A stretch of 64,000 nt of DNA from Euglena gracilis (taxonomy: Eukaryota). The number at the start of each line of letters is the position of its first letter. Position 1 is the first letter of the stretch. The notes under the pieces were generated by a model that saw nothing but the letters and a program-made list of their open reading frames with translations, searched no databases and was not told the DNA's origin. Shown here one piece after another: positions 1 through 22,400 of this stretch. The translations under genes and the position numbers were made by a program. Location: NCBI GenBank assembly GCA_039621445.1, contig CP154954.1:17886589-17950588 (forward strand). The letters run 5' to 3'.

Positions 1-299
1 CGTCCATCCACCCAAATCATCAAAAACTGTGTTTTTCGACTGTTTAATTTTTGCCCCCGTTCAAGTCCCACTCTGGCCCTTGGTCGGCCCTTTGGCCGAC
101 CAAGCCGTTCGTTCAGCCTTGCTGGGTGCAGGGCGGTCCTTAAGGGACAGGAAAGCTTTTTTTCTATTTCCTTAAGGACCGCCCCCCATTCATTCATTCG
201 GTCAGGAATGAATGAATGGGGGGCGGTCCTTAAGGAAATTAAAAAAAAACTTTCCTGTCCCTTAAGGACCTCCCTGCACCCGGCAAGGCTGAACGAACG
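1..299. repeat. Partial family A MITE followed by a long inverted repeat
   Basis: 1-98 matches family A interior; 106-299 is a near-perfect palindrome. Confidence 0.8.
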
Positions 300-730
300 T
301 GGCGGCACACCCTTCTGCATTCTATAACACAACATTTGGATTCCACACATGAAGTGTGTGCTTTCAACGTCAGCAGAGGTCATTTGAAATGACAAAAACA
401 AGCTAGGAAAACTTTCACTCCTCTGCAAAGCTGCTTTTTAATAAACAAATAAACAAAGACCCCAGGCAACAGCAGAGGGACCAGAGACAAAACATGACAT
501 GGCGGCCAACTACAAAAAAATTTCCAGGGCAAAATATTTTATGCAAAAAAATGCAAAAAAATGCAAATTTCGGAAAAACCTGATTATGCAAAAAAAATGC
601 AAATTATGCAAGTTGCATATTCCCCGCCCCTGCCCAAGCTCCTTTGGGGCAGGGGTGTCACAGCACCACCCTCCCCAAAACCTGTTCCCTTGGGGTCATT
701 GGGGTCAGGTGCGGGGGAGGAGGCCCACAC

Positions 731-808
731 TTCTGCAGCACCAGCTGCTGCCCCTGCAGCTCCAGATAGAACAGGGCGCCGCTGGTGCCCGCCAGCAGCA
801 GCTGGCCC
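731..808 (-). CDS. DDB1: DDB1 exon 18 ([17 protein letters not shown]...QK)
   Basis: Matches DDB1 Q...A.G.AL.YL; probable donor AA|gtgtgg. Confidence 0.88.
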
Positions 809-3800
809 CCCAGGGCCAGGGGCTTTTTCAGGACCCGGGGGGAGGAGGGGGGGTCCGGACCCACCCACCCACCCCCTGGGGGAGGCCCCCCGGGGGGGGG
901 GGGCTGGGGGAGACCCACTTTTGGGGGTCAATTTTGGGTCTAAATAAAATTTTCGGCGAGAAGCACCAAAAAAAAAAATGCCTCCAGAGTACCCACCCAG
1001 CCCGACCCCCCACCAGGGTTTCCCACTGATTCGTACTTGGGGACTCCTTTGCCCATTCGTACTTATTCGTACTTATTCGTACTTATTCGTACCTATTCGT
1101 ACCTATTCGTACTTCAAAAAAGGGCCATGTATGGCAATGGGTGACCATTTGGTATGCTTCCTTGGGCACATCTTCAACGTTCTGAAACCGGGAAAAGCAA
1201 GGAAAACAGGTCATTCACTTGAGAAACTATCTAAGTGACGAACTCATGCTGGCGAAATTTGTGGGGAAAAAATCGCGCTGTGAAAAAAAATACAAAACAT
1301 TACAGGAAAAACACATTCCTTCTTTGCGACTGATGTTGTCCAGCATGCCATGCACGAACAAATACTCAAGATGAAAAAGCGGATTGTTCAATTGTGTGCA
1401 AAGCGTTCTTCGCAGTCACCATTGCAAAACATGCCAACGGCTGCTTGCCGAAGGTTAGATGACATGTGTTGGCGGTTTTTGACATCAATCAGTCCTGCCA
1501 ATCTGAAAGACCGTTCAGACCAGGGCAATTCAATTTTGTGAGCCACACTTTCTTCCCGCTCAAGGATTTCCTTATGCTCGCAATGTGTGTGGTATACACT
1601 CTGTCCACTGACGGTGCAAACTACTCCCCTCTTTCACACTGCCATATACAGATGTGTACTTTCGGATGAGTCCCCTGATGGATGGATGGTCTAACTTGTT
1701 GATGGGCAAACCTAAAAATCATTTTCGGAGGGAAAAGAGGACATGAGGCGTCCTGCAGCGTAAGATATGCATCACATACAGAGAAGTGTGAGGGGCCCTT
1801 CAACTCAGTGCAATGGTGTAGAAAATTGTACCTTTTTCTACTTGGCAATTCGTACTTATTCGTAACTGGGGAATTTTTCATTTGTACTTATTCGTACTTA
1901 TTCGTACTTATTCGTATTTTGGCACATCTCGGCAATTCGTACTTATTCGTACTTATTCGTACTTATTCGTGTACGAATCAGTGGGAAACCCTGCCCCCAC
2001 CCCTGGGGGCTTGGCCGGGACCCACCCACCCCCCCCCCCCGGGCCACGAAACTTAAAAAAAAATCTCTGGTACGGATCCACCCGAGGGGGGGGGGGTCAG
2101 GGGGCTCGGGGATCCACTTTTGGGGGGCCAATTTTGGGGTCCAATCTTGATCGGTGCTTCGTGCCAAAAATCAAAAAAACCTGCCTCCAGCAGAGTACCC
2201 ACATGCCCCACCCCCCTCCCCCCTCCCGGGGCAGACCCACCCACCCCCCCTCCCCAGGGTCACCAAACTGTAAAAAAAAAAATCTCTGCCCAGGGCGTTG
2301 CAGCTCGCCAGGTTGATGGTGCACCCGCTTGGGCTGCTGGCCTGGGGGTTTGCTCCGGCCCAGCGCGGGAAGTAATTGGAATGGTTGCTCCGAAACACGA
2401 ATGGGGACTCCAACTGCCAAATTATGACCATTTTTTTCGACCGTTTTCCTGGTTGGAAGTTTTTTTTGTTTTGCCTGAGGACTGCGGGACCCCGCCGGGG
2501 GGTGGCAAAATGAAGCCTGGTGCTGGGGCAGGAATACTTTTCACATTAAGGGTCACCCTGCATTTAGCCAGAGGTGTGTGGGTCCAAGCACCCCAAATAC
2601 GGGTCGGAAAAGAAAAAACGTCAGGGAATGGTTTTTTTTGATTTTCGACCCTGTTCGATGTCTGGAACGGCCGTTGCCGGCACGCCCCTAAGGCCCAAGG
2701 GCGGTCCTTGACAAAAAAAAGCATATCATCTTTTATGGACCCCCTGCTTGCACTATGGGGTGCCTGCCAGCAGCGTGCACACCCCTGCGGGGGGGGGGGG
2801 CGGATTTGGGTTCCCAGCCCCAGCCGACCCAGCCAATTTGAAAATGGCCATTTTCATGTCCCCGGCGCCGAAGGTGGGCGTACTTTAGCACTGCCCACCC
2901 CAAAACCCAATCCCCAGGCTGAAAATGCCCTTCCCCCCTGCCTGCCCATAGCACTCCCCATTCAACGTTCCATCAAATTTCACAGAAAAAATGGCGAAAA
3001 ATTCCAAATTTTTCGGCGAGAATAGGTCAACATCACAACGTTTTTTAAAAAAAAACTACATTTTCTCACCTTTTTTTGAATGTCTACCCCGTTCAAACTG
3101 AATTATAAAAACAATCCTGTCCCTTGCGGACAAAGATTTCGGAAAAATTTTCAGGAGAGGTGAAAAACTGAAATAAAAATAATAATAAAAAAATGCTCTC
3201 ACATGGGGGAAAAAAACGCTTCCAACAAACCTTGAGGTGGGCCCTAGTCAGGCAAGTCAGGCAACTGTCAGATTGTTATCTGCAAAGAAAGGGAACCCCC
3301 GGTCCCATTCTTGGACCAAGCCTTTCGTTTGGCATGAGATCAGCCGGACACCCCGAGGGGTGACCTGAGTCAGAGGCATGGGCAGGGATGGTCTGACACA
3401 TGTTCTTTGGGGGCACCTCTCAAATGAAAGATAGGCGAGCACAAAAAAATTAAATTGGAATTAAAACTTGAATTCATGGTGCGGATCAACTTAGTTTTAA
3501 AACAATGTCTTCTTCGACAAGTTGATGAGACATGAAAAGTCTTCAACTTCCACAAAACAGCCGAGTCCTTGGGGGATCCAGGTTCACATCCACCCACCAC
3601 TGCAAGGGTTACCTGAATTGTTTGTTTTCACTGGGCATCCACAAAAAATCAAATGATGGTCCTGAGGCTAAATAAGAAGGATTGCAATTCCTGACAAATA
3701 TAGTTCACCAAATGGAAAAATATGTCAATGACCCCGCCTGGTGCAGAAATTTTTTCAAGGAACTGCAGAAAAAGAAGGGGTGAGCTGACCCAAATTTGAA

Positions 3801-6800
3801 CCAAAGTCTGAGAATCCCTGCAAAGCAATTTGTTATGATGAAATCTGAAAACTTTGGTTTGCATTAGATCTGTCACTTCTTTTTTTGGGACCTTGAACTT
3901 GCACCAAACATTTTTCACCCAAATCATATCTCTTGTATTTCTTCTCCATTTATGCTTGCTTTAGTCTGCATTGAAACAACAAACAACCAAAAAATTTTCC
4001 CCATATTCAAAATTATTTCCCCAAAATTTACTCAATCTCTCCCATGAGCATGCAAACTTGACTCCTTTGTAGTTTGGCAAACAAATAATAACATAATTTA
4101 TTATATAACAATAATGATAACACATCAATTTCAGGAGGGCAGCGGGTGGAAAAAATATCATTGAAATTTTGGGGGGAAATCAAAAATAACAACAAAATCG
4201 CGTTGTTTGAACCGGGAATTTCTTCATTTCTAGCACAAATCTTCTTCTTGAAATTGGCGCACCAGGTAAGAATTTGCAAACTCCAGTTGTAACAAAAGTT
4301 TGCCACAGTAAGCCAGCGGCAACGCAGCCAAGTCACCTGCACAAAGAAATGCGCCAGACTCTTGTTTTCGGCGGAGGCGATGTTGGTGCACAGCAGGGTG
4401 GGAAGGTCCGCCGCCAAGCCACCCAGCCTGGCTTCCTGACAGGCGAATATGCAAAAGCTTGCATCACTGCCAGCATTCTTGAAGGCCAGGTTCCTTTGCC
4501 CTTCCTTGCCCTCCAACTTTTCCTTACTGCACAAAAATGCAGAAATTGAACTGATGATGTCTTCCTCGTTCCTTCCCGAGACAAGACTCAAGACATTTCT
4601 CCCCGAGATATTATTGTTTAAAAGATGGTTTATATGGTGCTCCTGTTTGAATGTCCAGCATTGCATCGTTGAGTGTGGTACATTACTGCTTTGAAGCTGT
4701 GTAAGATACCTCCTCTGGTTGAGCCCCACAGGGGGCTGCACCTCGAAATCTAACCTTTGTTGTGTTGTATCATCTCTTAGAAACTGTTGGTTCGGAGGAA
4801 CTAATTCACAATCAAAAGTCCCCTTTTGCTTGAATGGGGAAAACAAAAATATGCGAGAAAACTATTAATCTCCCTCTTACACACCCTTCCAGTGAAAGAA
4901 CAATGAAACAAAAATTTTGGGCTGGAGGGAAAATAATGTGTTTGTTTGTGAATGTCATTGATAAATGCCATTGATGATAAATGGCAAAAAACCACACACA
5001 GGGGCATTTTGAACCATTTCAGGGGTCAGGATTTGACTTGATTAACAAATCCTTGAGGATTAGCAAACGATGGTGCAGAGATCCAACACAATGACAGCCA
5101 CATTAAATACCTTGTCATACAATTGTTAACCTACAGATGATTGTTTGACATTGATAAAACCTGCAATCAATGAGAAGAGGGTCACCCTATCCACAACCCT
5201 GCCGTCAATTACTGGGCTTGAAAGCTCAGAGTCCATTGGGCTGTTGATGCCATTGGTGGGGGAGACAGGCAAAGACAGAGACCTCGATGGATTCCTCGTC
5301 CTCCATGCTGAGCACCTTGGTCTCGTTGATGAAGGAGAGCACCAGGCTTCTTTTTACCGGGGGGAGGAGGGTCCCCCCTCCCACCCAGCCTGGTGCGGGA
5401 CCCCCGGGGGGGGACCCAAAAAATCGGGCTGTTTGCGAGCATTTCCCCCAAAAAATTTCGGTGTTCGCGCGGAAACCCAAACCCTTGCCTCCGGCCCTGG
5501 ACCCCCCCACCCCCCCCCGGGGGGGGGGAGGTCTTCTGACTTAAAAACAAGCCTGGAGAGCACCAAATACTTCGCGTTCAGCACTGCCTCCCCCTCCGTC
5601 ATGCTGTCCAGGGAGGGTTCCAGCAGGGACCACATTCCTGTGCAGGAGAGTTTTGTCAACCATTTGGCAGGGAGAACTATTAGCTTTCGACCTGCTCCAC
5701 GCAAAGCTGGTGGTTTTAAGCCGGGCTGAGAGCCCAGTTGGAGGCCAGGAATTGTGATCATGATCAAGTCGCTTCCCTGACCGCTTTGGTGGTGGCACAC
5801 CAATTTGGGGGGAGGGCACTATGAACGACCCTCCCCCACCCCCCCCCCCCGCTCAGCCCTGGAAAAAATGGCTCGCTGGAAACACACTGCTGGCTGACCC
5901 CCAATCCTGGGGTCCTGCGGTGGTCCATCACTGCTGTGGGGTGCAGCACGCAACCTTCTGGCGGCCCTGGACCCCAGCAACCTCGCACTAGCAAATAACC
6001 ACGGACCGCCTTGGAAGGTCAAGGAACCCTGGAGGGACCGAGCCACCGCCGGCGGGCGCGGCACACCCTTCACCCCCGTGAGCTGCAGCGAGGCCAGCTC
6101 GTTGATGCCGATGCCGTTGCGGATGACGCGGAGGCTGCCGTCCTTGAACGCCCCGCTGCAGGTCACCACTTGCCCCTGCCGCGCATAGGCACGGGGCATG
6201 GCGTCGGGAGCAGCAGTGGGGCTAGAGAAACACTTCTCTGGTTCCGGTGTTCTTTACAGGGCGGTCCTTAAGCAAATAAAAAAAAAACTCCGCTGTCCCA
6301 GCACACTCAGTGAAAAATACACGGGAAAATGGGCAAGAAATTTTGGCATTTTTCAGCGAGAACAGGTCGACATCAGGAAAAAAAATTGATTCCTGGCACC
6401 CTTGGACCATCGTCCATCCACCCAAATCATCAAAAACTGTGTTTTTCGACTGTTTAATTTTTGCCCCCCGTTCAAGTCCCACTCTGGCCCTTGGCCGGCC
6501 CTTTGGCCGAAAGGGGGGGGGGTCCTTAAAGAAATAAAAAAAACTTTCCTGTCCCTTAAGGACCGCCCTGGTTCTTTAAGACCGGGGAGGGGGAGGGGGG
6601 TCCCCATTGGCATTATGTATTTAAGGCTTAAAAACTTTTTTGGGCAAAAAGTGCCTGATGATGCCTTAAATGCCATAAAATGTTTAAAAATTTGGGTTGG
6701 CAGAACTTTCTCGAACCGAGCAAAAATGGAAGATGCAAAATATCGGCAAAAACACAGCCCAACTCTGGGGGGGAAAAATGATTTCTGGCATCGCTGGGAC

Positions 6801-9580
6801 ATTGGTCCAACCAAAAGTCAAAAAAACGTTGGTTTGATTCCCAGGCAGCCCTTTGAACGCTGTGGAAAACAGCATCTAAAAAAGCCTCAAAAAATGCCTT
6901 AAACTGCCTCAAAATTTTGAAAACAAAATACACCTGGTCCCCCACCCACCCAACAGAGGTAGGGGGTCCAGCCAACCCATCCACTCTGCTCCTTCCTCTC
7001 CCCCCTCCCGGGGTCCGAAACTTCCGTGCGCTGCCAAATCAGGCGTTGTTTGAGTCGTTGTTGGGAGGGGGGGGGTTGTTCAGCCAGGCACCATTTGAGC
7101 CCCCCCCCCCCCGCCACATATTGCGTGGTGTGTCCAACTTTCCTGTCGCTGTTTCACTGGTTGTTTTTTTTTAGAGACTGCCTGGTTCCAGGCCCTCCCC
7201 CCGGGTGGGATTGAACGAGGGGTGACCGAAAGAGGCCCATCCAGCACTGAAGGCGCAGGAGAATTCAGGTGAAAATGGCCAAACTGGATTGATTCTTGGT
7301 CATTTTGACGCTCCTCCTAAGCATGGGGGGGGGGGGGGTGCCTGCCGAGTCGCGGGCCAAAAAATGCCCAAAAATGGGTTTTCTGGGCTTCCGGAAGTGC
7401 CTTGGCCGACTGCCCAGGCACTTTTGGTTGTGTGCCCCCCTCCTGGGGGGGAGGAAGTCGGATGCCCAGGCAGGCACCCCCTTAGTTGCACTGAGGCTTC
7501 TTGTCTGTTAATGGCCGGCGCTAACTTCGCTTCTGGCCCAGTTTGTGTGGTGAGGCAGGCACCCCCCGAGGCAGGCACCCCCCCTGGGGTGGGGTCTGCC
7601 TCACGTTAAAATTGAGCCTGGCGCCCAAAGCCAAACAGAGGCTGTCTTATTTGCAGAACCTTCGACTGAAGCTGTGCTTTCAAACAGAACCCCTTTTGGA
7701 ACTGATGGCGAACTGTCTGAATGCATCAGATGTCCTTTGATGCCCTAAAGAGCACAAACGATGCGACCAGGTGTCTTTTCGCGATCCAAAGGGGGATTCC
7801 ATATGAGGGTCAGGCTGAATTTGACCAACCCTGGAGATGGGGATCTTGGGGTGTGAGTGGGCGGGTGGGTACTTCTCCCAAGGTTTGGCCATGTGCCCTA
7901 CCCCCCCCCTAGAGGGTTGGATCTGGGTGCCGTGGAGTGCCTTCCAGGCGGGCATCCCCCACCCCCAGATTGGGGTCGGCCTTGCCCAACAATATCAGCC
8001 AGATAAGGCCAGCTTGGACAGGTCCGTCAACAACAACAATGTTTTAAAAAAAACCCACCTGACGACATTTAATGCAAAATCCACAGGTGGTTGCAAAAAT
8101 GACCGTTTTCTGGCAAAAATGGGTCGACATCAGAAAAAAGCGGTGTTTGGCGTCCTTGAGGCATCGCCCATCCATCCGAAACATCAAAGAAATGCGGTTT
8201 TCGACTTTCGACGTTCCCATCCAAGCCCCAGACCGGCCGTTGCCCTGAGGCCTGAGGGCTGTCCTCAAGGGGCGGTCCTCACTACTGATTTTTCTAAAGC
8301 GCATTAAACAACCTTGAAAAAACCCAAAGAGTTTTGGCCAGAATGCCTTACAGTGCATTGGTGCCCTCCCCCTTGACTGGATGGAGGGCAGTCCGGGACA
8401 ATGTTGAACCATGGCTGCCAGAAGTCATGTTTTTTTCCGCAATTGGCTTGTTTTTGCCGAGAATTTGCAGTTGCATTTTCGCTCGTAAAGAGGAAATCGA
8501 GCCAAAAGTTTTTTAATGCCATTTTGATCTAAATGAACCATTCTTGGCCTGGTGTGAAGCGCTGGGCCGAAGATTCCCCAGCATCAACCCAAAATGCATT
8601 GATAGGCTCTTTTGGGCAAAAAAAAAAGCCGAAATTGCCAAAAAAAAAAATTCAATGCAAAGTGTCGGAAAGAAAATTTTTGACCCATTTGGGGGATCTC
8701 GGGTGCCCCCCCAAATTAACCGAGGGCACCCACCGTTGGTCTGAAGCAACCTTTGGTGGGGGGGTTTCCAGACTCTCCCTGTGGTCAAAAGGGAACGGCA
8801 CCATCGTTGGGTACGCCCTCCTCAAATTGAACCCCAGTGCAGGCTGCTGCCAAGCATCTATAGCCAAGCCCAAAAAAATCCCAATTTTAGGCCATTTTAG
8901 CCATTTTATGCCGTTTCAGGCCATTTTAGGCCATTTAAGGCCATTTTAAGGTATAGGTGGGGGTTCTGAAAATCATAATTTTGTGTCATTTTTGTCCCAA
9001 AAACTGTATCATAATGTATGCAAACCTTCTCTTATTCAGGAAGAAGAAATGCACATCTAAAAAAGCATGCAAAATTCATAAACACTGGATCAAAACCATG
9101 GGAAGCTCAACAAATCTTAATTCATACCCACAGAGGAATTCTGAACAAAGAATTTATCAGTTTACGGCAAAAAAAAAAGTTTTTCTGAAAACATTTTCAG
9201 AAAAAAATGTTGGACAAATGTTAAATCTTTTATTTGCACCACCAAAGAAGCGCCGGTCTTTTTTGCATTTTGTAAAATCATTTTGCGGGATATCGTAAAA
9301 GCAATCTTTTTCTTGAAAGATGATGCTTTTGCCTGGTGAAATTCAATTTGATTTTGGCAGTGTTTCAGCCATTTGGGTCTTTTTTTTTTGGCATGAGAGA
9401 GGATGGCAGAGATCAAAGGGCAAAGCTGAGAGCAATTCCTCTTCTCCGTGTTTCCCCCTTGGGGGAAACTTAATACTAAAAAGAAAACCCTCTGAACACG
9501 TTCATAAATATGAGAGAGCCACATTCATAATTGTTTGTGGTTATTTGGGTCATTTGATCATTATCATTATCATTATCACT

Positions 9581-10491: not shown

Positions 10492-13400
10492 CAGGGCAGT
10501 CCTTAAGCAAATAAAAAAAAATTCCGCTGTCCCAGCACACTCAGTGAAAAAATTACAGGAAAATGGGCGAAATTTTGTCGTTTTTCAGCGAGAACAGGTC
10601 GACATCAGGAAGAAATTGATTCCTGGCACCCTTGGACCATCGTCCATCCACCCAAATCATCAAAAACTGTGTTTTTCGACTGTTTAATTTTCGCCCCCAT
10701 TCAAGTCCCACTCTGGCCCTTGGTCGGCCCTTTGGCCGAAAGGGGGGGCGGTCCTTAAGGAAATTAAAAAAAAAACTTTCCTGTCCCTTAAGGACCGCCC
10801 TCTGGTGTGTGCGCGCGCGTGCGTGTGCGCGTGTGTGCGCGCACGCGTGTGTGTGGGTGTGGTGTGGGTGTGTGTGTGCACTCGCAGCGCACATGGATGT
10901 AGAAAAGATCACTCAGAGTGGCTTGCACACCTGGCCCTGCCGGTCCAGATCCACAACCACAAAATCAACAATGGGGCCGAGGTTGGTGAAGCTCTCCAGG
11001 GTTTCAATGGCACTCCCACCCCCTGAACAGCAAAGGGGACCCTCAATGCGCGCCTTTCTGGGCGAAAACAAAAATTGAACTAAGCCAGGTGTGGCCCCCG
11101 AAGTTGGCCTTTTCGGCCTTTTGCACATGGCCCAAAACTCTGAACATCCAAACTTGACCACATAAGATTGGCCCCCTAGCCTGAACTTCAATCATCAGAT
11201 GCACATTCTCCTAAAAACAACCTCTGGCAGGGCAGGTTTGAGCCCCCCCCCTCGCAGTTGGTCAAATTCAGCCTGGCCTATTGGCATTGGAAAGCATTGA
11301 TACCTCCCCACCAAAATGGAGCATCTCTGGTGAAAAAAAAAACGTTGTATCCACCCAAAACTTGTCCTCTTTTTCCTGAATGACATCAGCGTCTGGCTCC
11401 AACGTCGGGGGGGGGGGGGGCTTCACATTTGGGTGGCAAAACCAAACCCCCTGGGGGGGCTGAATATTTGGGGGGGGGATACCCCCTGGTGGGAGGGGCA
11501 GTGTCAGCCACCCCGGAATCCAAGGAAAATTTGACACAAACGTGAAAAAGGGCAAAAAATGTTTCTGTCGCCTTCGACGCCGGGTCACTTTGGTGGTCTT
11601 TTGCCGACCCCCCCCCTCCCCACAGACATCTTGAGGCTATAATCACAATTGTCTGACCAACCAAATCTCGAAAACTCTTTTTTAACTTTCACGTCGAAAA
11701 TAGAAAAGTTCGATGCCTGGGCCACTCTTGGACCATCCTTGGAGACTAGTGGTTTAAAAAACCAGTCACTTTGAATAAACCTCAAGCAGTGACAAGGTTT
11801 CACTCCGTTGTTCAGAAATCTGAAAAATAATTTCTTCAAAAAATGAGCTTGGAGGCCACCTGAAATGATTTTGGGATCGATCTGTGACTTCGAAAATCGT
11901 GCCCAAACGATGACCCGGTCATGGAATTTGGCTGCTGAATTTATTATTTGGAGGATTCAGGGAATTTCTTAAGACAGCGGGAGGGGTCAGGGAGAAAAAT
12001 TCTTTCCAATTTTGGAACATGTTAAAACTGTGAATTTGGTACAAGAGCAATTCTGACCCTGAATGCATCCTGACCCTGAAAAAAAGTTGGGAGGTCAAAA
12101 TATGCATCATGACCCTGAAAAAAAGTTGGGAGGTCAAAATATGCAAAATATGATTAAAATACACATTATCCCAAATTTTTACAACGTAAAAGCTGAAAAC
12201 TATGCAAATGAGAAATTGCAATAATCTAGATAATGCAAAAGAAATGCAAATGATGCAACTTGCATAACCCCCCAGGCATTATTGTTTAAAGCGCCTGAAA
12301 AAACCTTAAAATGGGCCTCACAAATTTTGGCCAAAATGACTTAAATTAGAATTTTGGACTGGGAGACTCCAACCGAGAGGAGCTGTCCGCCCCTTGGACC
12401 TAAAGGCGGTCCTCAAGGGGCGGTCCAGAAGGGAAAAAAAAAACTTCCCATCCCTCATGGACTGCCTGGCAAAAAATAAGCCCACTCTGGAGAGAGCCAA
12501 CTCTGGACATTGTCCATCCAACCAAATCTCAAGAATGAGTTTTTCGACCTTTTTTGATTTTGGACCACGTGCAAAATCAACAACGTTTGGTTCGATGCCC
12601 AGGCAGCCCTTGGAGTGCCCTGGAAAATGGTGCCTTAAAATGCCTTAAAAAGCCTTAGAAGGCTTTAAAACGCCTTGGAATGCCTGGAAGTTTTGAAAAA
12701 AAAATGCGTTAAAAAATAATGCCTGATAACCCCCCTCCTGCAGATGCCCCCCAAAAATAATCTAAACCCCCAAATGGAGGGCACATACCAGGCTGCGATG
12801 CCAGGCGAACCAGTTGGGAGTCCGTAAATGCCCCACCAACAAATACCATAGAGGAGCCCAGGAAAGACAAGCAAGACGGAATGCAAGTCTGCAGAGGTGC
12901 GACCAGGGTGAAAAAAGTGCGGACCAACGAGACCGCCTTTTCGATGCACCTCATCACATACTATCGCCCTGGTAATATGGGTAACTGCATTGGGGCTGAA
13001 AAGAAGCTAATTCAATTTCAAAAAAATATTTGGGTATTATTATTATTATTATTGGAGCCAAACCTTCTGGCACCCAATGCCAACATTTCAGAGACATTTT
13101 TTTGCACAGAAAAGGAAGCATGTATTTTGATTTAAATGCGAAGCCTTGGGGTATTGGTTTCATGGGATGGGTCCCGCGATGATGACAATTTTCAAGTTGG
13201 TCCAATTTTCTCTCTACCCTGAAAGCTTTGACCCCAACCTTCATAAATCCTGGAACGCCAATTGGATGCATGGAGGCCAGGGTTGGGGTTGTTGTTCAGT
13301 TTGGGGATGAGGTGAGGGTTTGGACTTCTGAAGGATTACCATCGGGACCGAATGGCCGCCCGAAATTGTTTCACAGAATTTTTGGGGTATGTGCAGCCCA

Positions 13401-16400: not shown

Positions 16401-19400
16401 GTCCTAACAGAAATAAAAAAAAGAAAAAAAAACCTCTCCACTGTCCAACACTCAAAACAAAATATACAGGAAAATGGTCAAGAAAATTTGGCATTTTTTT
16501 TGGCAAAAACAGTCAACTTTAGGGGGAAAAAAAACTGATTCCTGGCCTCCTTGGACCAGTGCCCATCCACCCAAAGAATCAGAAAATGTGATTTTCGCCT
16601 TTCTCATTTTTGACCCCATTCCAGTCCCAGTCGGCCGCTGGTCGGCCCTTTGGCTGAAAGGGGGAGTCCTTAAGAAAATTAAAAAAAACATTCCTGTCCC
16701 TTGAGGACTGCCCCGGGAGGGGTCCAGGGGTTCCCCCTCCCAAGGTTCCCCCCAACTGGAAAAAAAAATTCCTCCGGCGCTGCGCACCAAGTTGGAAATG
16801 AGGTTTTCAATGGTTTTTTGGCTGATTTTGTTCGCAAAAACCCAAAAATGGCCAAAGATGGGGATTTGGGCCGGTTTTGGGGGTCCCAAATAATTTTCTG
16901 CGCTTCGCGATGGTCACTGGGAAAAGTTTGTCCACCAGCCAGCCCTACTAGCAGACCCCCCCCAGGGTCCACTAGGATTTCCACCAGCCAAATTTGGACA
17001 AGCTGCAGTCCAGTCCCCCCCCCCCAGGGGTGGACAGGGGAGGGTGTGCTGCAAACGAAAGGCCTGGCAGGCAGGTACCCCCCCAAAAAGGAAAAAAAAG
17101 CCCAAATCCAGCTGGGTTGGAAGTTTTCAGCCAAAATAGGAGGTGACCCAAAGCCACCCCCATTTTTGCCTCCTTTTTTCAAAAAAAAGTTCCAGTCCAG
17201 TCCAAACCTTATTTCAATGGACCCGGCCGGGAGTTGCTGGTTGGAAAAAAGGTGCTGGCTGGTTGGACCCAGGCATTATTTATTATTTATTATATTTAAA
17301 AACCTTGAAATTTTCGTTCTGCCCAGATGGCCAGATGGCTCTTGAACCGCCTTAAAGATAGATGCCTTAAAATTTTTTTAAAAATCTCAATATGCCTCAA
17401 AAACCCTCAAAAAAAAAACTCAAAAAAAAAAACTCCATAAACCTTTAAAATTTTTGACTTTTTTGAAATCTTTGAAAATTTTCGACTTAAAGAAATAATG
17501 ATGCCTGGTTGGACCCTCCAGCTTAAGAAACCTGTGTCAACTCCACCCCCCAGGGGGTTGACTGACTGGCTTTTTTGGAGTGACTGGCTGGTTTTTTTTT
17601 TTTTGGCTCCTGGACCCCCTCCCTGTGAAAGCCAATATCACAAGAGAAATTTTTCTCCTGGAGATGGCAAAAAGCAGAATTCTTCTCAAAAGTTTCCATA
17701 CTTGTCCATTGCTAAACTTTGTTTCCTTACATTTGGCGATTTATCACTTTATTGCATATTTTTCCTACCATTTCAAAATTACATTTTCAGGCATTAAACC
17801 CGCCCCAAATAGTATTCCCCCAAATAATATTCCTCCCAAATAACATTCCTCAACTTCAGCCGCCCAAAATAATATCCCCCCCCCATTTTGCACAGAGCGC
17901 AACAGAAACAAAGGAGTTTTCCTGGGAGCTGGGACCGTACTTTTTGTGCAATTTTTACATGAATTCCACCATGTTCAGATTGAAAACAGACAGGAAAATA
18001 CCAAAAGGTGCAATTTGAGATGTTGCTTTGATGGTGTTCGACATGGAGACAGTGCATTTCACAATCAAGATTTTACGCCCGAAAACCCAGGGAAATAATC
18101 GCCAAATAATCCCGCCCTGAGGGTGGACTTCAGCGGACCAAATGATATTCCCGAGGGGTGGAATTATTTGGGAGGTTATTTGCATTTTTTTTGCCATTTT
18201 GGACACATATTCCTTCAAAAAATTCATTTTTCCTATAAAAAAATCAAAAAAACTTTTTCCTTGAATGTCTTCATGAGAACCCAGATATTTTTTCCAACTG
18301 TGATGAAACCAAATGCGAAGCAGCCGTGAGAACAACAATGGCATTTCTTTGACAATCAAATTTTTGTTGCACGGAATTTCCAAAAATAATTAAACTCAAA
18401 GAACAAACCCCCCACCAAATTACAAACTTAATTATGCAAAAAAGCCAGTAATTAACCCCCCAGGTCACCAATCTTAAATAAATCGGGGTTGGGACCCCCT
18501 GCCTCGATACCGAAGGCCTTCCCACACATCCCTGCGGTTTCTGGGATTCCCTTTCAGCCCTGGCCGGGCCATGCAGCTTATCGTTTGGGCAAAACAACCA
18601 TCCCAATCATGCAAAAAACGCAAATACAATCACGATTTGTGACGGATCATCCCAACGCATACCGGTATGAGCAGCGACGCGGTGTTTTCCACGTTGTGTT
18701 GCACAAATGGGTGATCCACCAGGTCTTTGTCAGCCACCATGATGTTGTAGGCCTTGACATGCCTGCAGGCAAATGTGAGGTGTGCAAAGGTGATGGAAAT
18801 CAAAAATTTCCCATCATTCCTTTTTCCCATAATCTGTCCCCCCAAATGCCCTGAGTACGTTCGAGCTTCAGGGGTGATCTTGTGTCTCATAAAAGGAAGG
18901 GGGATATTCACATTTTTGGGCCGGGAAACCTAGATGCTTTTGGTTTAAAGCACAAAAGACAACAACTGTTTTTCCAAAGTAAGGCGTCCCATCATTATTT
19001 TCCCTTGGAACTGTTTCAATTGAATCACATTTAGCCGTCAATTTCCCCTCATTCCCGTCAGTTTGACAGTACCGCGGGGTCCCATTCGCATTCGGAATGC
19101 GCCCTTGGTCACCCAATCAAAAACCCAGCACCGGTCCCAAAAGAAAGTTGCAGGCAGCCTAACCTGGCTTTTTAGACTGTGGACCACCCCCCCCCTGGGG
19201 GACCACAAACCTGTGCTGCTTTTTTTTTTCGTTTTTTTGCTTTCGGACCGCCCTGTCCTCCACAAAGTCCACACCCCCTTCTTCAGCATGGGCCGATCAT
19301 ATGAATGTTCTGAGTTCATTGTCTTCGGGTTTGGCTTCAGGTGGCGCACCAGAGCACAAGAATAAGAGCTCAAGCTCATCCTGGGGGGGGGGGTCCAGCC

Positions 19401-22400
19401 AGAAGCCTGTTTCCTGTTCCCAAATTTTCCAGCCTTAGAGCTGGGGGGAGGGGCAAAGCGAAGCCCTCTGGGTAACCTTTGTCACAACGTTGATGGTGTG
19501 ATGTGATCCCCCGATTTGGAAGTTGGGTTGGAAGTTGGGTTTCGTGGTGGCTGTACGCCCCTCGACGCGTTACAGCAAGCCCTCGGAATTGGGGCGGCGA
19601 TTTAGGCTCCAGTTTGGCCGAAGTTAAGACCTTTTTGCCCCCAGACTTCTTTTCAAGACCCCCAAGCCCACCCACTCGGCCCAGTGCGGGGCCCACCCCG
19701 ATTTTTGCCCATTTGGCGTGAGTTAAAACCAGCATTTTTTGAGATCCAAACTCTCTGAGGACACCATTGTTTATACATGACTATAGAAGCCACACCTGTT
19801 CCCTTTTGTGTCCTCGTACAGAAAGGCCACAGTGTTTGTGGACCAGGGGTCGGTTGAGGAGGAGGAGGACGCAGATGACGTGGCAGCAGGGTTCACAGCG
19901 GCCGGCTTTTCCAAGAAATGCAAAAAAAAAGCAAAACCAAAGGGCAGGGAGCGGATCAAAATCCATGGACGGTCCTGAAGGTTAAAAAAAAAGAATCCTG
20001 TCCCATCTCATTCGACGCAAAATTCCATGTGGGGCAGGTTTTTCCCCTTGTTTTCGATAAAGGCAGCCCTTTGAGGATCTCAGACCGAAGGGTTGGCCAA
20101 GGGCCGGTCCGGGGTCGAACAGGGTCAAATACTTATATTTATATATAATTAGAAAAATATATTTGTTTTTATACGTTATAAACAAATATACAATATTTAA
20201 AATTCGCCTTTTTTTACCTGTTTACAATGCGGACAAAAATACAACAAAATTACGGCAGACGAAAATTACGGGGGAAAATATTACAAGAAACAAATTATGG
20301 GAATTTTTTGATTTTGAAAAAAACCAACAAAAATTCAAAATTTTAGAGAAAGTGGTGGTAATTTTTTTCAGTTGAAATGAAGATTTTTTTAAAGCAAAAA
20401 TGTCACTCAAAATCCCAGGGGGTGGTCAAAATGGACTTCTGGTGGTGTTTTTGTGAGTTTTCAATTCACAAAAAACCCCAAGAATTGACAACATTGCACC
20501 TTGTCTATTTGTGCGTGACTGCCCTTGGGAGTGGCTCCCCCAAAGGGCATAGGGAAAATGCACTGGACAAGAACTTTGGGGGAAACCCGATAATTTTTCT
20601 CTCTTGTAATTTTTGTCTGCGCTGTATGGACGGGCGATGGTCAAAGATGCCAGAAATCACTTCCCCCCCCCCCAAAATTGACCCCCGTTTGCGCCAAAAC
20701 GTGGCCATTCTTTTCCGCCCATGGTTCCTGTGTATTTTTGGACCGCCCTGCAGACCACCTTTCCACCCACCACCCTTAACTTCCCGTTCAGACTGCATTG
20801 TGAACCTAGCCAATTGCGTCAGTGTGTGTGTGTGTGTGTGTGTGTTGTGTACAATCCATCAAAGGTGGTGTGACTGCCATTTGTGCGGTTTATGTTTAAT
20901 ACCAAAAACAATTACCTTTCCATCACACTAGATTCTGCTTTTGAATCTCCAAAGCACAAAGACAGCCACAGTTCCCGACTCTGCAAGAAGCACATGTCAA
21001 AGAGCTTGTGCTCCTCCACCCGAAGGTTGAATGCGTCCTTGAGCTGACACTGCCCGGCACTGTTGGCGATGGGAATCACTTTGAGCAACCCCTGAAGTGG
21101 AAAGCAGTGGCATGGTCCACACCAAGAGCACGTTGCTTTGCAATCTGAGCCCCCGAAAAAAGATGCCCTCCCGACACGTTCAATTAAAAAATACACAAAA
21201 AAAAGCGGAAGTTGACTCGGCAAAAACATTTTGACATTGAAAAAATGATTTCTAACATTCTTGGACAATCGCCACCCACCCAAAACATCCAAAATGTGCT
21301 TTACAACTTCACCCATTTTGGGGGAATTTAAGCTGTCTGGAGTTGAGCTGCTGGCTGGCTGGACCCCCCCCCCCCGGGGATGGGGTCCCCTCCGACCTAA
21401 GAAATCCCCTGCTTTGGGCACTAGCGACAGAGGAATTTTTTTTTCCAGTTCGGGCGACCCCTGGACCCCCCCCCGGGGGGGGGTCTGGCTGGTCCATTTT
21501 TTCCAGTCTAGCCGATTGGCTAGCCAGTACCCCCCCCCCCCGGGGTCCTTAAACAGAAGCCTGATCCTACCCCTGACCCTGTTTTTAAAATCAAGTGCCA
21601 ACCCTCCCCAAATCTGCCGCTGGTTCCCCTGCGCCACGGGCGCTTGTCAGCTTGCGAGCAGCGGAGCCGCTGTCTCTGACTTGCCAGGACCGGACGCGGG
21701 CTGGTGCAGGATCCACAGCGAATGTGAAGAGAATGACGTTAAAGTTTCTTCCGCCGCCTTTGGCACGACGTCATCCCCCCCCAAGGAGGGGGAGGGGTTT
21801 GGCCAAAACCAGTCAGCCATTTGGGGGGGGAAAAACAATTAGTCAGGCCTCCCCTGGGGTGGGGTTGGCCTGCGCGCCAAGGTGGAAATGAGGTTTTTAA
21901 TAGGTTTTTGGCTGATTTTGTTCCAAAAATTCCTAAAAATGGCCAAAAACGGACATTTTTGGCCATTTTGGGGGTCCCAATTTTTTTTCCACTAGCTAGC
22001 CATGATAGCAGACCCCCCCCCGGGGGGGTGTGCTATAAATCCCAATAGCCAAATTTGGACTAGCTGCAGTCCAACCCCCGCCGGGGGGGGGGGGGGGGGT
22101 ACTGCAATCCCTTAAGCAGAAGCCTGGGTAGGATTGGCCTGCCGAAAATTGGCCCTTTTTGGGGACAAAGGTAGGGTGGAAGTTAGGTGACAAAGATTTA
22201 AAAAAAAATAACGCCGTCGACTGTGAAAGGTTGCCATGCATACGGCACGACATACCTCGTAGAGGTGCAAAGCAATCAAAGTGCCGGCTTCATTTATAAG
22301 CCCAATTCGAGGTATTTCAACTTTCCGCCCTGTGAGAAAGCAAACCAACTCCGGAGGTTAGTGCTGTTGTCCACATTTGATGTTGGGTTAGGGTTAAGGT

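Follow-up and report, generated by a model that had tools for sequence, protein, structure and literature searches.

The window analysed here, a stretch of 64,000 nucleotides (nt; 64 kb) of Euglena gracilis DNA (contig CP154954.1), codes for DDB1 on its minus strand. We describe intron 17 of this gene, a 1480-nt insertion that carries the hallmarks of a DNA transposon and is absent from the mRNA. The open reading frame (ORF) at 5819-6253 matched 39 PDB sequences (E <= 0.001), with a best E value of 2.9e-12, and the best of 568 database matches was P0001 (1205 amino acids), 97% identical over the aligned part. P0001 is a transcript-derived protein with the source name 'EG_transcript_838', a form of naming that presumably belongs to a Euglena gracilis transcriptome. 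As judged by tblastn, residues 1-560 of P0001 lie between 30095 and 730 on the minus strand, and the remainder of DDB1 extends past the left end of the window. The two exons that border intron 17, placed in the register of a published splicing code (described below), are:

2292-2338, minus strand: DDB1 exon 17, placed by tblastn of P0001 and by the RNA joints 2338->3305 and 808->2289
730-811, minus strand: DDB1 exon 18, with G as its first base, placed by tblastn; an assembled contig (data set X1, below) exits at 730

Intron 17 is removed precisely from RNA

Deletion of 1480 nt joins AAC GCC CTG GG to G GGC CAG, and the product is exactly the junction of P0001. The ortholog P0003 (88% identical, 1006/1141) has the same junction residues, ungapped, showing that the 8 nt duplicated on either side of the insertion encode conserved host sequence. 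We aligned four public runs to window 650-6300. The RNA joint 808->2289 skips 1480 nt, with 8 ambiguous positions, and was distributed over the runs as follows:

X21, raw RNA: 6 reads from 6 starts
X24, raw RNA: 2 reads
X1, contigs that we take to be RNA: one 3158-nt contig, depth 369
X20, DNA-like, of a kind not on record: 0 contigs

The X1 contig with this joint shows those of introns 12 to 16 as well, and one X20 contig crosses the filled border (2114-2426). The element and one copy of its flanking repeat are removed precisely from the RNA.

The original prediction, made from the letters of the window, held that removal of 1480 nt restores the DDB1 frame, and this agrees with both P0001 and the RNA joint. 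It proposed junction-spanning reads as the check, and exon 17 is joined directly to exon 18 in three RNA data sets. Exons 17 and 18 lying apart in mRNA would have spoken against it; P0001, the reads and the contig all show the join. GT-AG, GC-AG or AT-AC ends are found in none of the 9 registers compatible with the mRNA. A GT-AG micro-exon hidden in the intron, the other finding that would have counted against the prediction, is rejected, as the residue count across the junction is exact.

Anatomy of the element

The insertion consists of the following parts, given in the order of the sense strand where they do not overlap (TSD, target-site duplication; TIR, terminal inverted repeat; MITE, miniature inverted-repeat transposable element):

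2289-2296, no strand assigned: TSD copy that is upstream in sense, 8 bp, CCCAGGGC on the plus strand and GCCCTGGG in sense
817-2288, minus strand: composite non-autonomous TIR element, the body of intron 17, with sense start CAGAGATTTTT and sense end AAAAAGCCCCTG
2070-2288, minus strand: unit 1, a 3'-truncated MITE copy (5' TIR and core), which provides the used 5' end
2067-2072, minus strand: internal second 5' end, a candidate cryptic 5' site, UAC-CAG in sense
1994-2069, minus strand: 5' part of unit 2 (5' TIR), as far as the nested insertion
1014-1993, no strand assigned: nested non-autonomous element, 980 bp, with perfect 23-nt TIRs
817-1013, minus strand: core and 3' TIR of unit 2, which provides the used 3' end, with CTG at 817-819
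809-816, no strand assigned: TSD copy that is downstream in sense, 8 bp, CCCAGGGC on the plus strand

The flanking 8-bp repeat is perfect (8/8), and both copies abut the 1472-bp element. On the plus strand the element starts with CAGGGGCTTTTT and finishes with AAAAATCTCTG. Read as inverted repeats, its termini match at 9 of 12 positions (CAGGG / CAGAG), and the terminal repeats are long, about 50 nt. A scan of the whole window for CAG..CTG ends, a perfect 8-bp flank repeat and at least 9/12 matching terminal positions returned 4 elements; none came from any of 20 mononucleotide shuffles.

Pairwise alignment of unit 1 (219 nt) with unit 2 (817-1013 plus 2001-2069) gave 173 identities at 187 aligned positions. 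The final 36 nt, with the 3' terminal repeat among them, are missing from unit 1. The internal AAAAATCTCTG end (plus strand) stops at 2069, where unit 2 starts in sense with a second CAGAGATTTTT. The homologous place in unit 1 is free of the nested insert, which means that either the tandem predates the nested insertion or unit 1 derives from another copy. The TIR sequence of the nested element is CAGGGTTTCCCACTGATTCGTAC; the element also contains arrays of a 10-nt subterminal repeat, ATTCGTACTT, and its flank repeat is 7 nt (CCCCCAC), not 8. None of its 6 ORFs has a significant Pfam match, with nothing below E = 0.07. In the public runs, reads and contigs diverge exactly at 1993, the border of the nested element, and word depth at this element is 10^4-10^5, compared with about 44 in unique flanks. 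In the MITE arms (834-879, 2011-2060 and 2228-2260), GGGTGGGTGGG runs lie beside C-runs; the arms are each capable of self-folding, and G-quadruplex-like motifs occur near both ends in the sense RNA.

This anatomy bears out most of what had been predicted: a 1.47-kb composite element with a perfect 8-bp TSD (1472 bp and 8/8 here), a 980-bp element nested within it, and an internal end near 2069, which stops at exactly that position. The two MITE units are related, as had been claimed, but are not equals, unit 1 being the truncated one.

Intron 17 and the nonconventional splicing code

DDB1 intron 17 is a euglenid nonconventional intron, a long-known class. The original prediction is supported, though it had not recognised this class. 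Introns of this kind are described as lacking GT-AG ends and having ends that pair, often with CAG at +4..+6 and CTG at -8..-6; they often have TSD-like junction repeats, and leave the transcript after the conventional introns, as circles (PMC11282704). Knock-in genetics gave a splicing code for Euglena, 5'-N3CDG-/-CH'GN5-6|R, with a strict 3-nt spacer on the 5' side, a spacer of 5 or 6 nt on the 3' side and a preference for a purine as first base of the following exon (Nomura et al. 2025, PMC12501133). As reported there, the code was derived from non-slidable introns, and changes in central length were without effect on splicing of the knock-ins. One of the 9 registers of intron 17, ...GCCCT|GGG-CAG-AGA ... 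CCC-CTG-GCCCT|GGGGGG..., agrees with every term of this code. It places CAG at +4..+6 and CTG at -8..-6, leaves spacers of 3 nt (5') and 5 nt (3'), and makes the first base of the downstream exon a G (window 811, sense), that is, a purine. The tolerance of growth that had been predicted for this intron fits the nested 980 bp, the extra 219-nt unit and the knock-in data (PMC12501133).

Minimum free energy (MFE) folding of the whole intron (1480 nt) gave a structure of -561.3 kcal/mol in which nt 1-63 are paired with the final 55 nt and the internal second 5' end is paired locally. This internal end, UAC-CAG, also fits the code. It lies 219 nt from the outer 5' end, and its use would leave 219 nt in the mRNA, including an in-frame TGA. 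The predicted duplex of the internal 5' end with the 3' end reached -84.1 kcal/mol (z = -3.08), a value attained by 1 of 200 shuffles, as makes sense for two ends that are partners within unit 2. A joint using the internal end (near 2069) was not seen among the 15 joints listed out of 196, with 8 reads spanning the junction. The part of the original prediction that concerned a cryptic 5' site therefore holds as to plausibility (motif and stronger duplex), and not as to use, at least among the joints listed. We regard the internal end as a plausible cryptic 5' site, from which a minor isoform, or one cleared by nonsense-mediated decay (NMD), may arise.

Related elements in the window

We examined 155 CAG..CTG pairs with at least 10/12 matching terminal positions, across the 64 kb, for flank repeats:

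8 nt: 3 cases, at 5343-5555 (intron 13), 6257-6570 and 17270-17507
7 nt: 1 case, the nested element at 1014-1993
9 nt: 1 case, at 12273-12725
4 nt: 2 cases

The same test on 20 shuffles produced four 4-nt repeats in total and none at 7-9 nt. The intron 17 element, with its 9/12 termini, is a fourth 8-nt case, contributed by the scan at 9/12 or better, and 8 is the mode of flank-repeat length over the window. Three elements with 7-9-nt repeats sit in ordinary GT-AG introns (11, 10 and 7), indicating that the elements are not tied to coding sequence. The hAT superfamily has the end motif YARNG. The elements look hAT-like, both the 8-bp duplication and the CAGRG ends being suggestive of this superfamily.

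The intron 13 element, which is identical to unit 2 at 161 of 185 aligned positions, is the one clear relative of the outer MITE within the window, where the depth signal of the outer MITE is confounded by G/C runs; blastn of the element pieces against the window gave, beyond the intron 13 element, only short G/C-rich matches. Intron 13 (5338-5558; element 5343-5555) consists of a 213-bp MITE with ends CAGGCTTsTTTT (11/12) and a perfect 8-bp duplication (GTGCTCTC in sense), and slides by 11 nt. A skip of 221 nt is seen in RNA, in 12 X21 reads as well as in the X1 contig. Its code register gives a pyrimidine-first following exon, contrary to the published purine preference.

Conventional intron 11 contains the 314-bp MITE at 6257-6570, whose ends are perfect over 12 nt (CAGGGCGGTCCT) and whose duplication is 8 bp (GTTCTTTA). 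Position 6257 is the exact point at which many reads and contigs part, and depth is very high, which makes this a high-copy family; sequence like its CTTAAGGACCGCCC recurs near 120-290 and 10550-10760. Divergence exactly at 1993 and at 6257, together with the very high depth, indicates that the nested element and this MITE both belong to multi-copy families. The elements at 12273-12725 (intron 10) and 17270-17507 (intron 7) form one family, with ends CAGGCATTATT and flank repeats of 9 and 8 nt.

Other introns of DDB1

A joining script resolved 16 of the 17 DDB1 junctions in the window; the other, intron 12, was resolved by the RNA data as a 429-nt GT-AG intron. A GT-AG register exists for 13/17 introns, the ones without it being introns 5, 13, 16 and 17. 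Intron 16 (2339-3304) is a non-slidable, non-GT-AG intron of 966 nt with GA..CC ends, and its joint is present in the RNA data; intron 5 (19895-20975) has 1081 nt and is also non-GT-AG. In neither can a flank repeat be recognised by eye, and both lack CDG/CH'G at the offsets of the code; they may be nonconventional introns of greater age that have decayed. From the end of exon 18, at 730, the X1 contig continues into QTKLPHEIAC-coding sequence outside the window. The first two bases of intron 18 in sense are TG, and this intron may be nonconventional as well.

At about 5609-5611 the window codes for L, compared with P in P0001 (EPSLDSM versus EPSPDSM), probably an allelic or strain difference. 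A Pfam search of 86 window ORFs returned one sub-threshold match, to the DDB1 beta-propeller (E = 2e-4, 20.9 bits, cutoff 26.9), and an Rfam search of window 1-7000 returned 0 matches.

Discussion

Our interpretation is that intron 17 is a nonconventional intron derived from a hAT-like insertion, whose TIRs pair in the transcript and which is released by cuts with spacers of 3 and 5 nt, so that the element and one repeat are removed; we put the probability of this at about 0.88. According to this interpretation, a hAT-like non-autonomous DNA transposon would have inserted into a coding exon of DDB1, duplicating 8 bp (GCCCTGGG in sense). Two MITE copies in tandem, one truncated at its 3' end and one complete, would have come to make up the insertion, and the 980-bp TIR element would later have invaded the complete one. 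In the pre-mRNA, the terminal inverted repeats would pair and bring both ends together. The nonconventional splicing system would then read CAG at +4..+6 together with CUG at -8..-6, with one cut on the upstream side of CAG, at a distance of 3 nt, and the other on the downstream side of CUG, at a distance of 5 nt. As 3 + 5 = 8, what leaves the RNA would be the element plus exactly one copy of the repeat, and the original frame would be restored. The CAG/CTG code is palindromic, so it should work in either orientation of the insertion. We infer the assignment to hAT, the register of the cuts and the sequence in which the insertions occurred, and likewise the link between spacer lengths and duplication length.

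A number of observations weigh against this interpretation. The cut register cannot be read from intron 17 itself, which slides by 8 nt, and the junction is spanned by only 8 raw reads. End pairing also gives less than might be expected. Over 70 nt, the outer 5' end and the 3' end reach -72.6 kcal/mol (z = -1.62), while dinucleotide shuffles average -61.7 kcal/mol and 16/200 of them are as good as the outer pair; over 30 nt the outer ends do no better than shuffles (z = +0.81), compared with z = -4.06 for the ends of intron 13. The ends thus pair whatever the order of their bases, because they are G-rich and C-rich. The internal 5' end pairs better, yet the mRNA uses the outer site, and the code alone does not explain the choice of site. 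The hAT label is based on the length of the repeat and on the end motif, and 0/86 window ORFs of at least 130 amino acids match a transposase family in Pfam. As for the DNA, the kind of the X20 run is not on record, and contigs can lose rare alleles.

Among the alternatives, the one that we take most seriously, while still considering it unlikely, is that the spliceosome removes the element through non-consensus sites held together by the terminal hairpin, as in Fritillaria, with no separate machinery. The spliceosome does act on this transcript, 13 of the 17 introns in the window being ordinary GT-AG introns, and an adaptable spliceosome is offered as one option for diplonemids (PMC12621601). 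However, none of the 9 registers of intron 17 has GT-AG, GC-AG or AT-AC ends. Introns of this class are described as having no complementarity to U1 and as leaving late, as full-length circles rather than lariats (PMC11282704, PMC12621601), and the CAG/CTG pairing with its fixed 3-nt spacer is unlike spliceosomal signals (PMC12501133).

It is also conceivable that the difference lies in the DNA, as an insertion polymorphism or a somatic excision, and that the mRNA comes from gene copies free of the element. The perfect flank repeat means that the insertion could be young, and the X20 contig at the filled border has a depth of 18.8, compared with about 44 nearby, so alleles may differ. Yet hAT excision usually leaves footprints and does not restore the site precisely. 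An empty site, that is, an element-free allele, was found in none of the X20 contigs, yet the corresponding joint is present in the RNA data sets, and the mRNA contig that has it also lacks the non-canonical introns 13 and 16. We consider this explanation very improbable. Least credible of all, to the point of being nearly negligible, is a cDNA artefact in which reverse transcriptase switched template between the 8-nt repeats. Direct repeats beside a strong hairpin do favour template switching, but the joint recurs across three data sets, each from a different study, and is present in a reference transcriptome protein, its junction residues match those of the P0003 ortholog, and the open DDB1 frame needs the joint, since the element brings a TGA.

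An origin of euglenid nonconventional introns from MITEs was proposed in 2013 (Milanowski et al. 2013/2014, PMC3935182) and is still called unproven in PMC6221363 and PMC12501133; the transposon origin continues to be written of as a hypothesis. Intron 17 is a spliced intron that shows transposon hallmarks intact: an 8-bp duplication, long TIRs, nesting, and sister elements nearby in non-coding sequence. It sharpens the known picture and does not change it, as a clean and young case, with nesting, in which the published splicing code and the geometry of a transposon are tied together. Three points may be new, namely that spacers of 3 and 5 nt add up to the length of the 8-bp repeat, that the ends are hAT-like, and that a second 5' end fits the code. 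The first of these suggests a possible reason for the spacer rule, and the tandem 5' ends within one intron offer a natural test of splice-site choice. In the papers searched, with subscription papers and PNAS supplements outside the scope, we found none that links Euglena introns with hAT elements or an 8-bp duplication, and none that relates the spacers to the length of the duplication; the sliding-distance figure in the PNAS supplement may already show a peak at 8.

We tentatively suggest, at somewhat less than even odds, that the splicing system is tuned to the geometry of hAT ends, that the 'slidable' majority of these introns are young insertions, and that site choice depends on more than the strength of pairing. 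If so, the spacers would total 8 because the target duplication is 8, and insertion of such a MITE into an exon would be neutral in either orientation. The site would be chosen as the outermost or first-transcribed end, or NMD would clear the other product.

Comparison with known systems

With hAT MITEs, the intron 17 element shares the 8-bp TSD, short TIRs starting with CAGRG, a non-coding interior, nesting, and the presence of elements of this kind in non-coding DNA; it differs in that no hAT transposase was found among the 86 window ORFs. Removal of the maize transposon Ds from RNA uses cryptic spliceosomal sites and is imprecise, whereas removal of intron 17 is exact. Splicing of Ds out of transcripts was reported by Giroux et al. 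(1994). Introners of Micromonas, Aureococcus and dinoflagellates are likewise DNA transposons that insert into exons and become introns, with the target duplication contributing to the junction, but they create GT-AG sites for the spliceosome, and intron 17 has no GT-AG register (0/9). Non-canonical introns of diplonemids and of the tunicate Fritillaria borealis are similar in their non-GT-AG, inverted-repeat ends and in their proposed MITE origin (PMC12621601, PMC11282704). They belong to other lineages, with motifs and spacer rules that differ or are undefined, and those of Fritillaria are held to be spliceosomal, unlike our interpretation of intron 17.

The closest likeness is to the euglenid nonconventional introns themselves. 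Intron 17 shares with them the lack of GT-AG ends, the CAG/CTG offsets, the 3- and 5-nt spacers, a purine-first following exon, ends predicted to pair, junction repeats that make the intron 'slidable', and removal from mRNA. In the main text of PMC12501133, the junction repeats are not interpreted as 8-bp target duplications. What sets intron 17 apart within the class is that it keeps a perfect 8-bp repeat and terminal repeats of ~50 nt, and that it is a stack of three transposon pieces with two 5' ends that fit the code.

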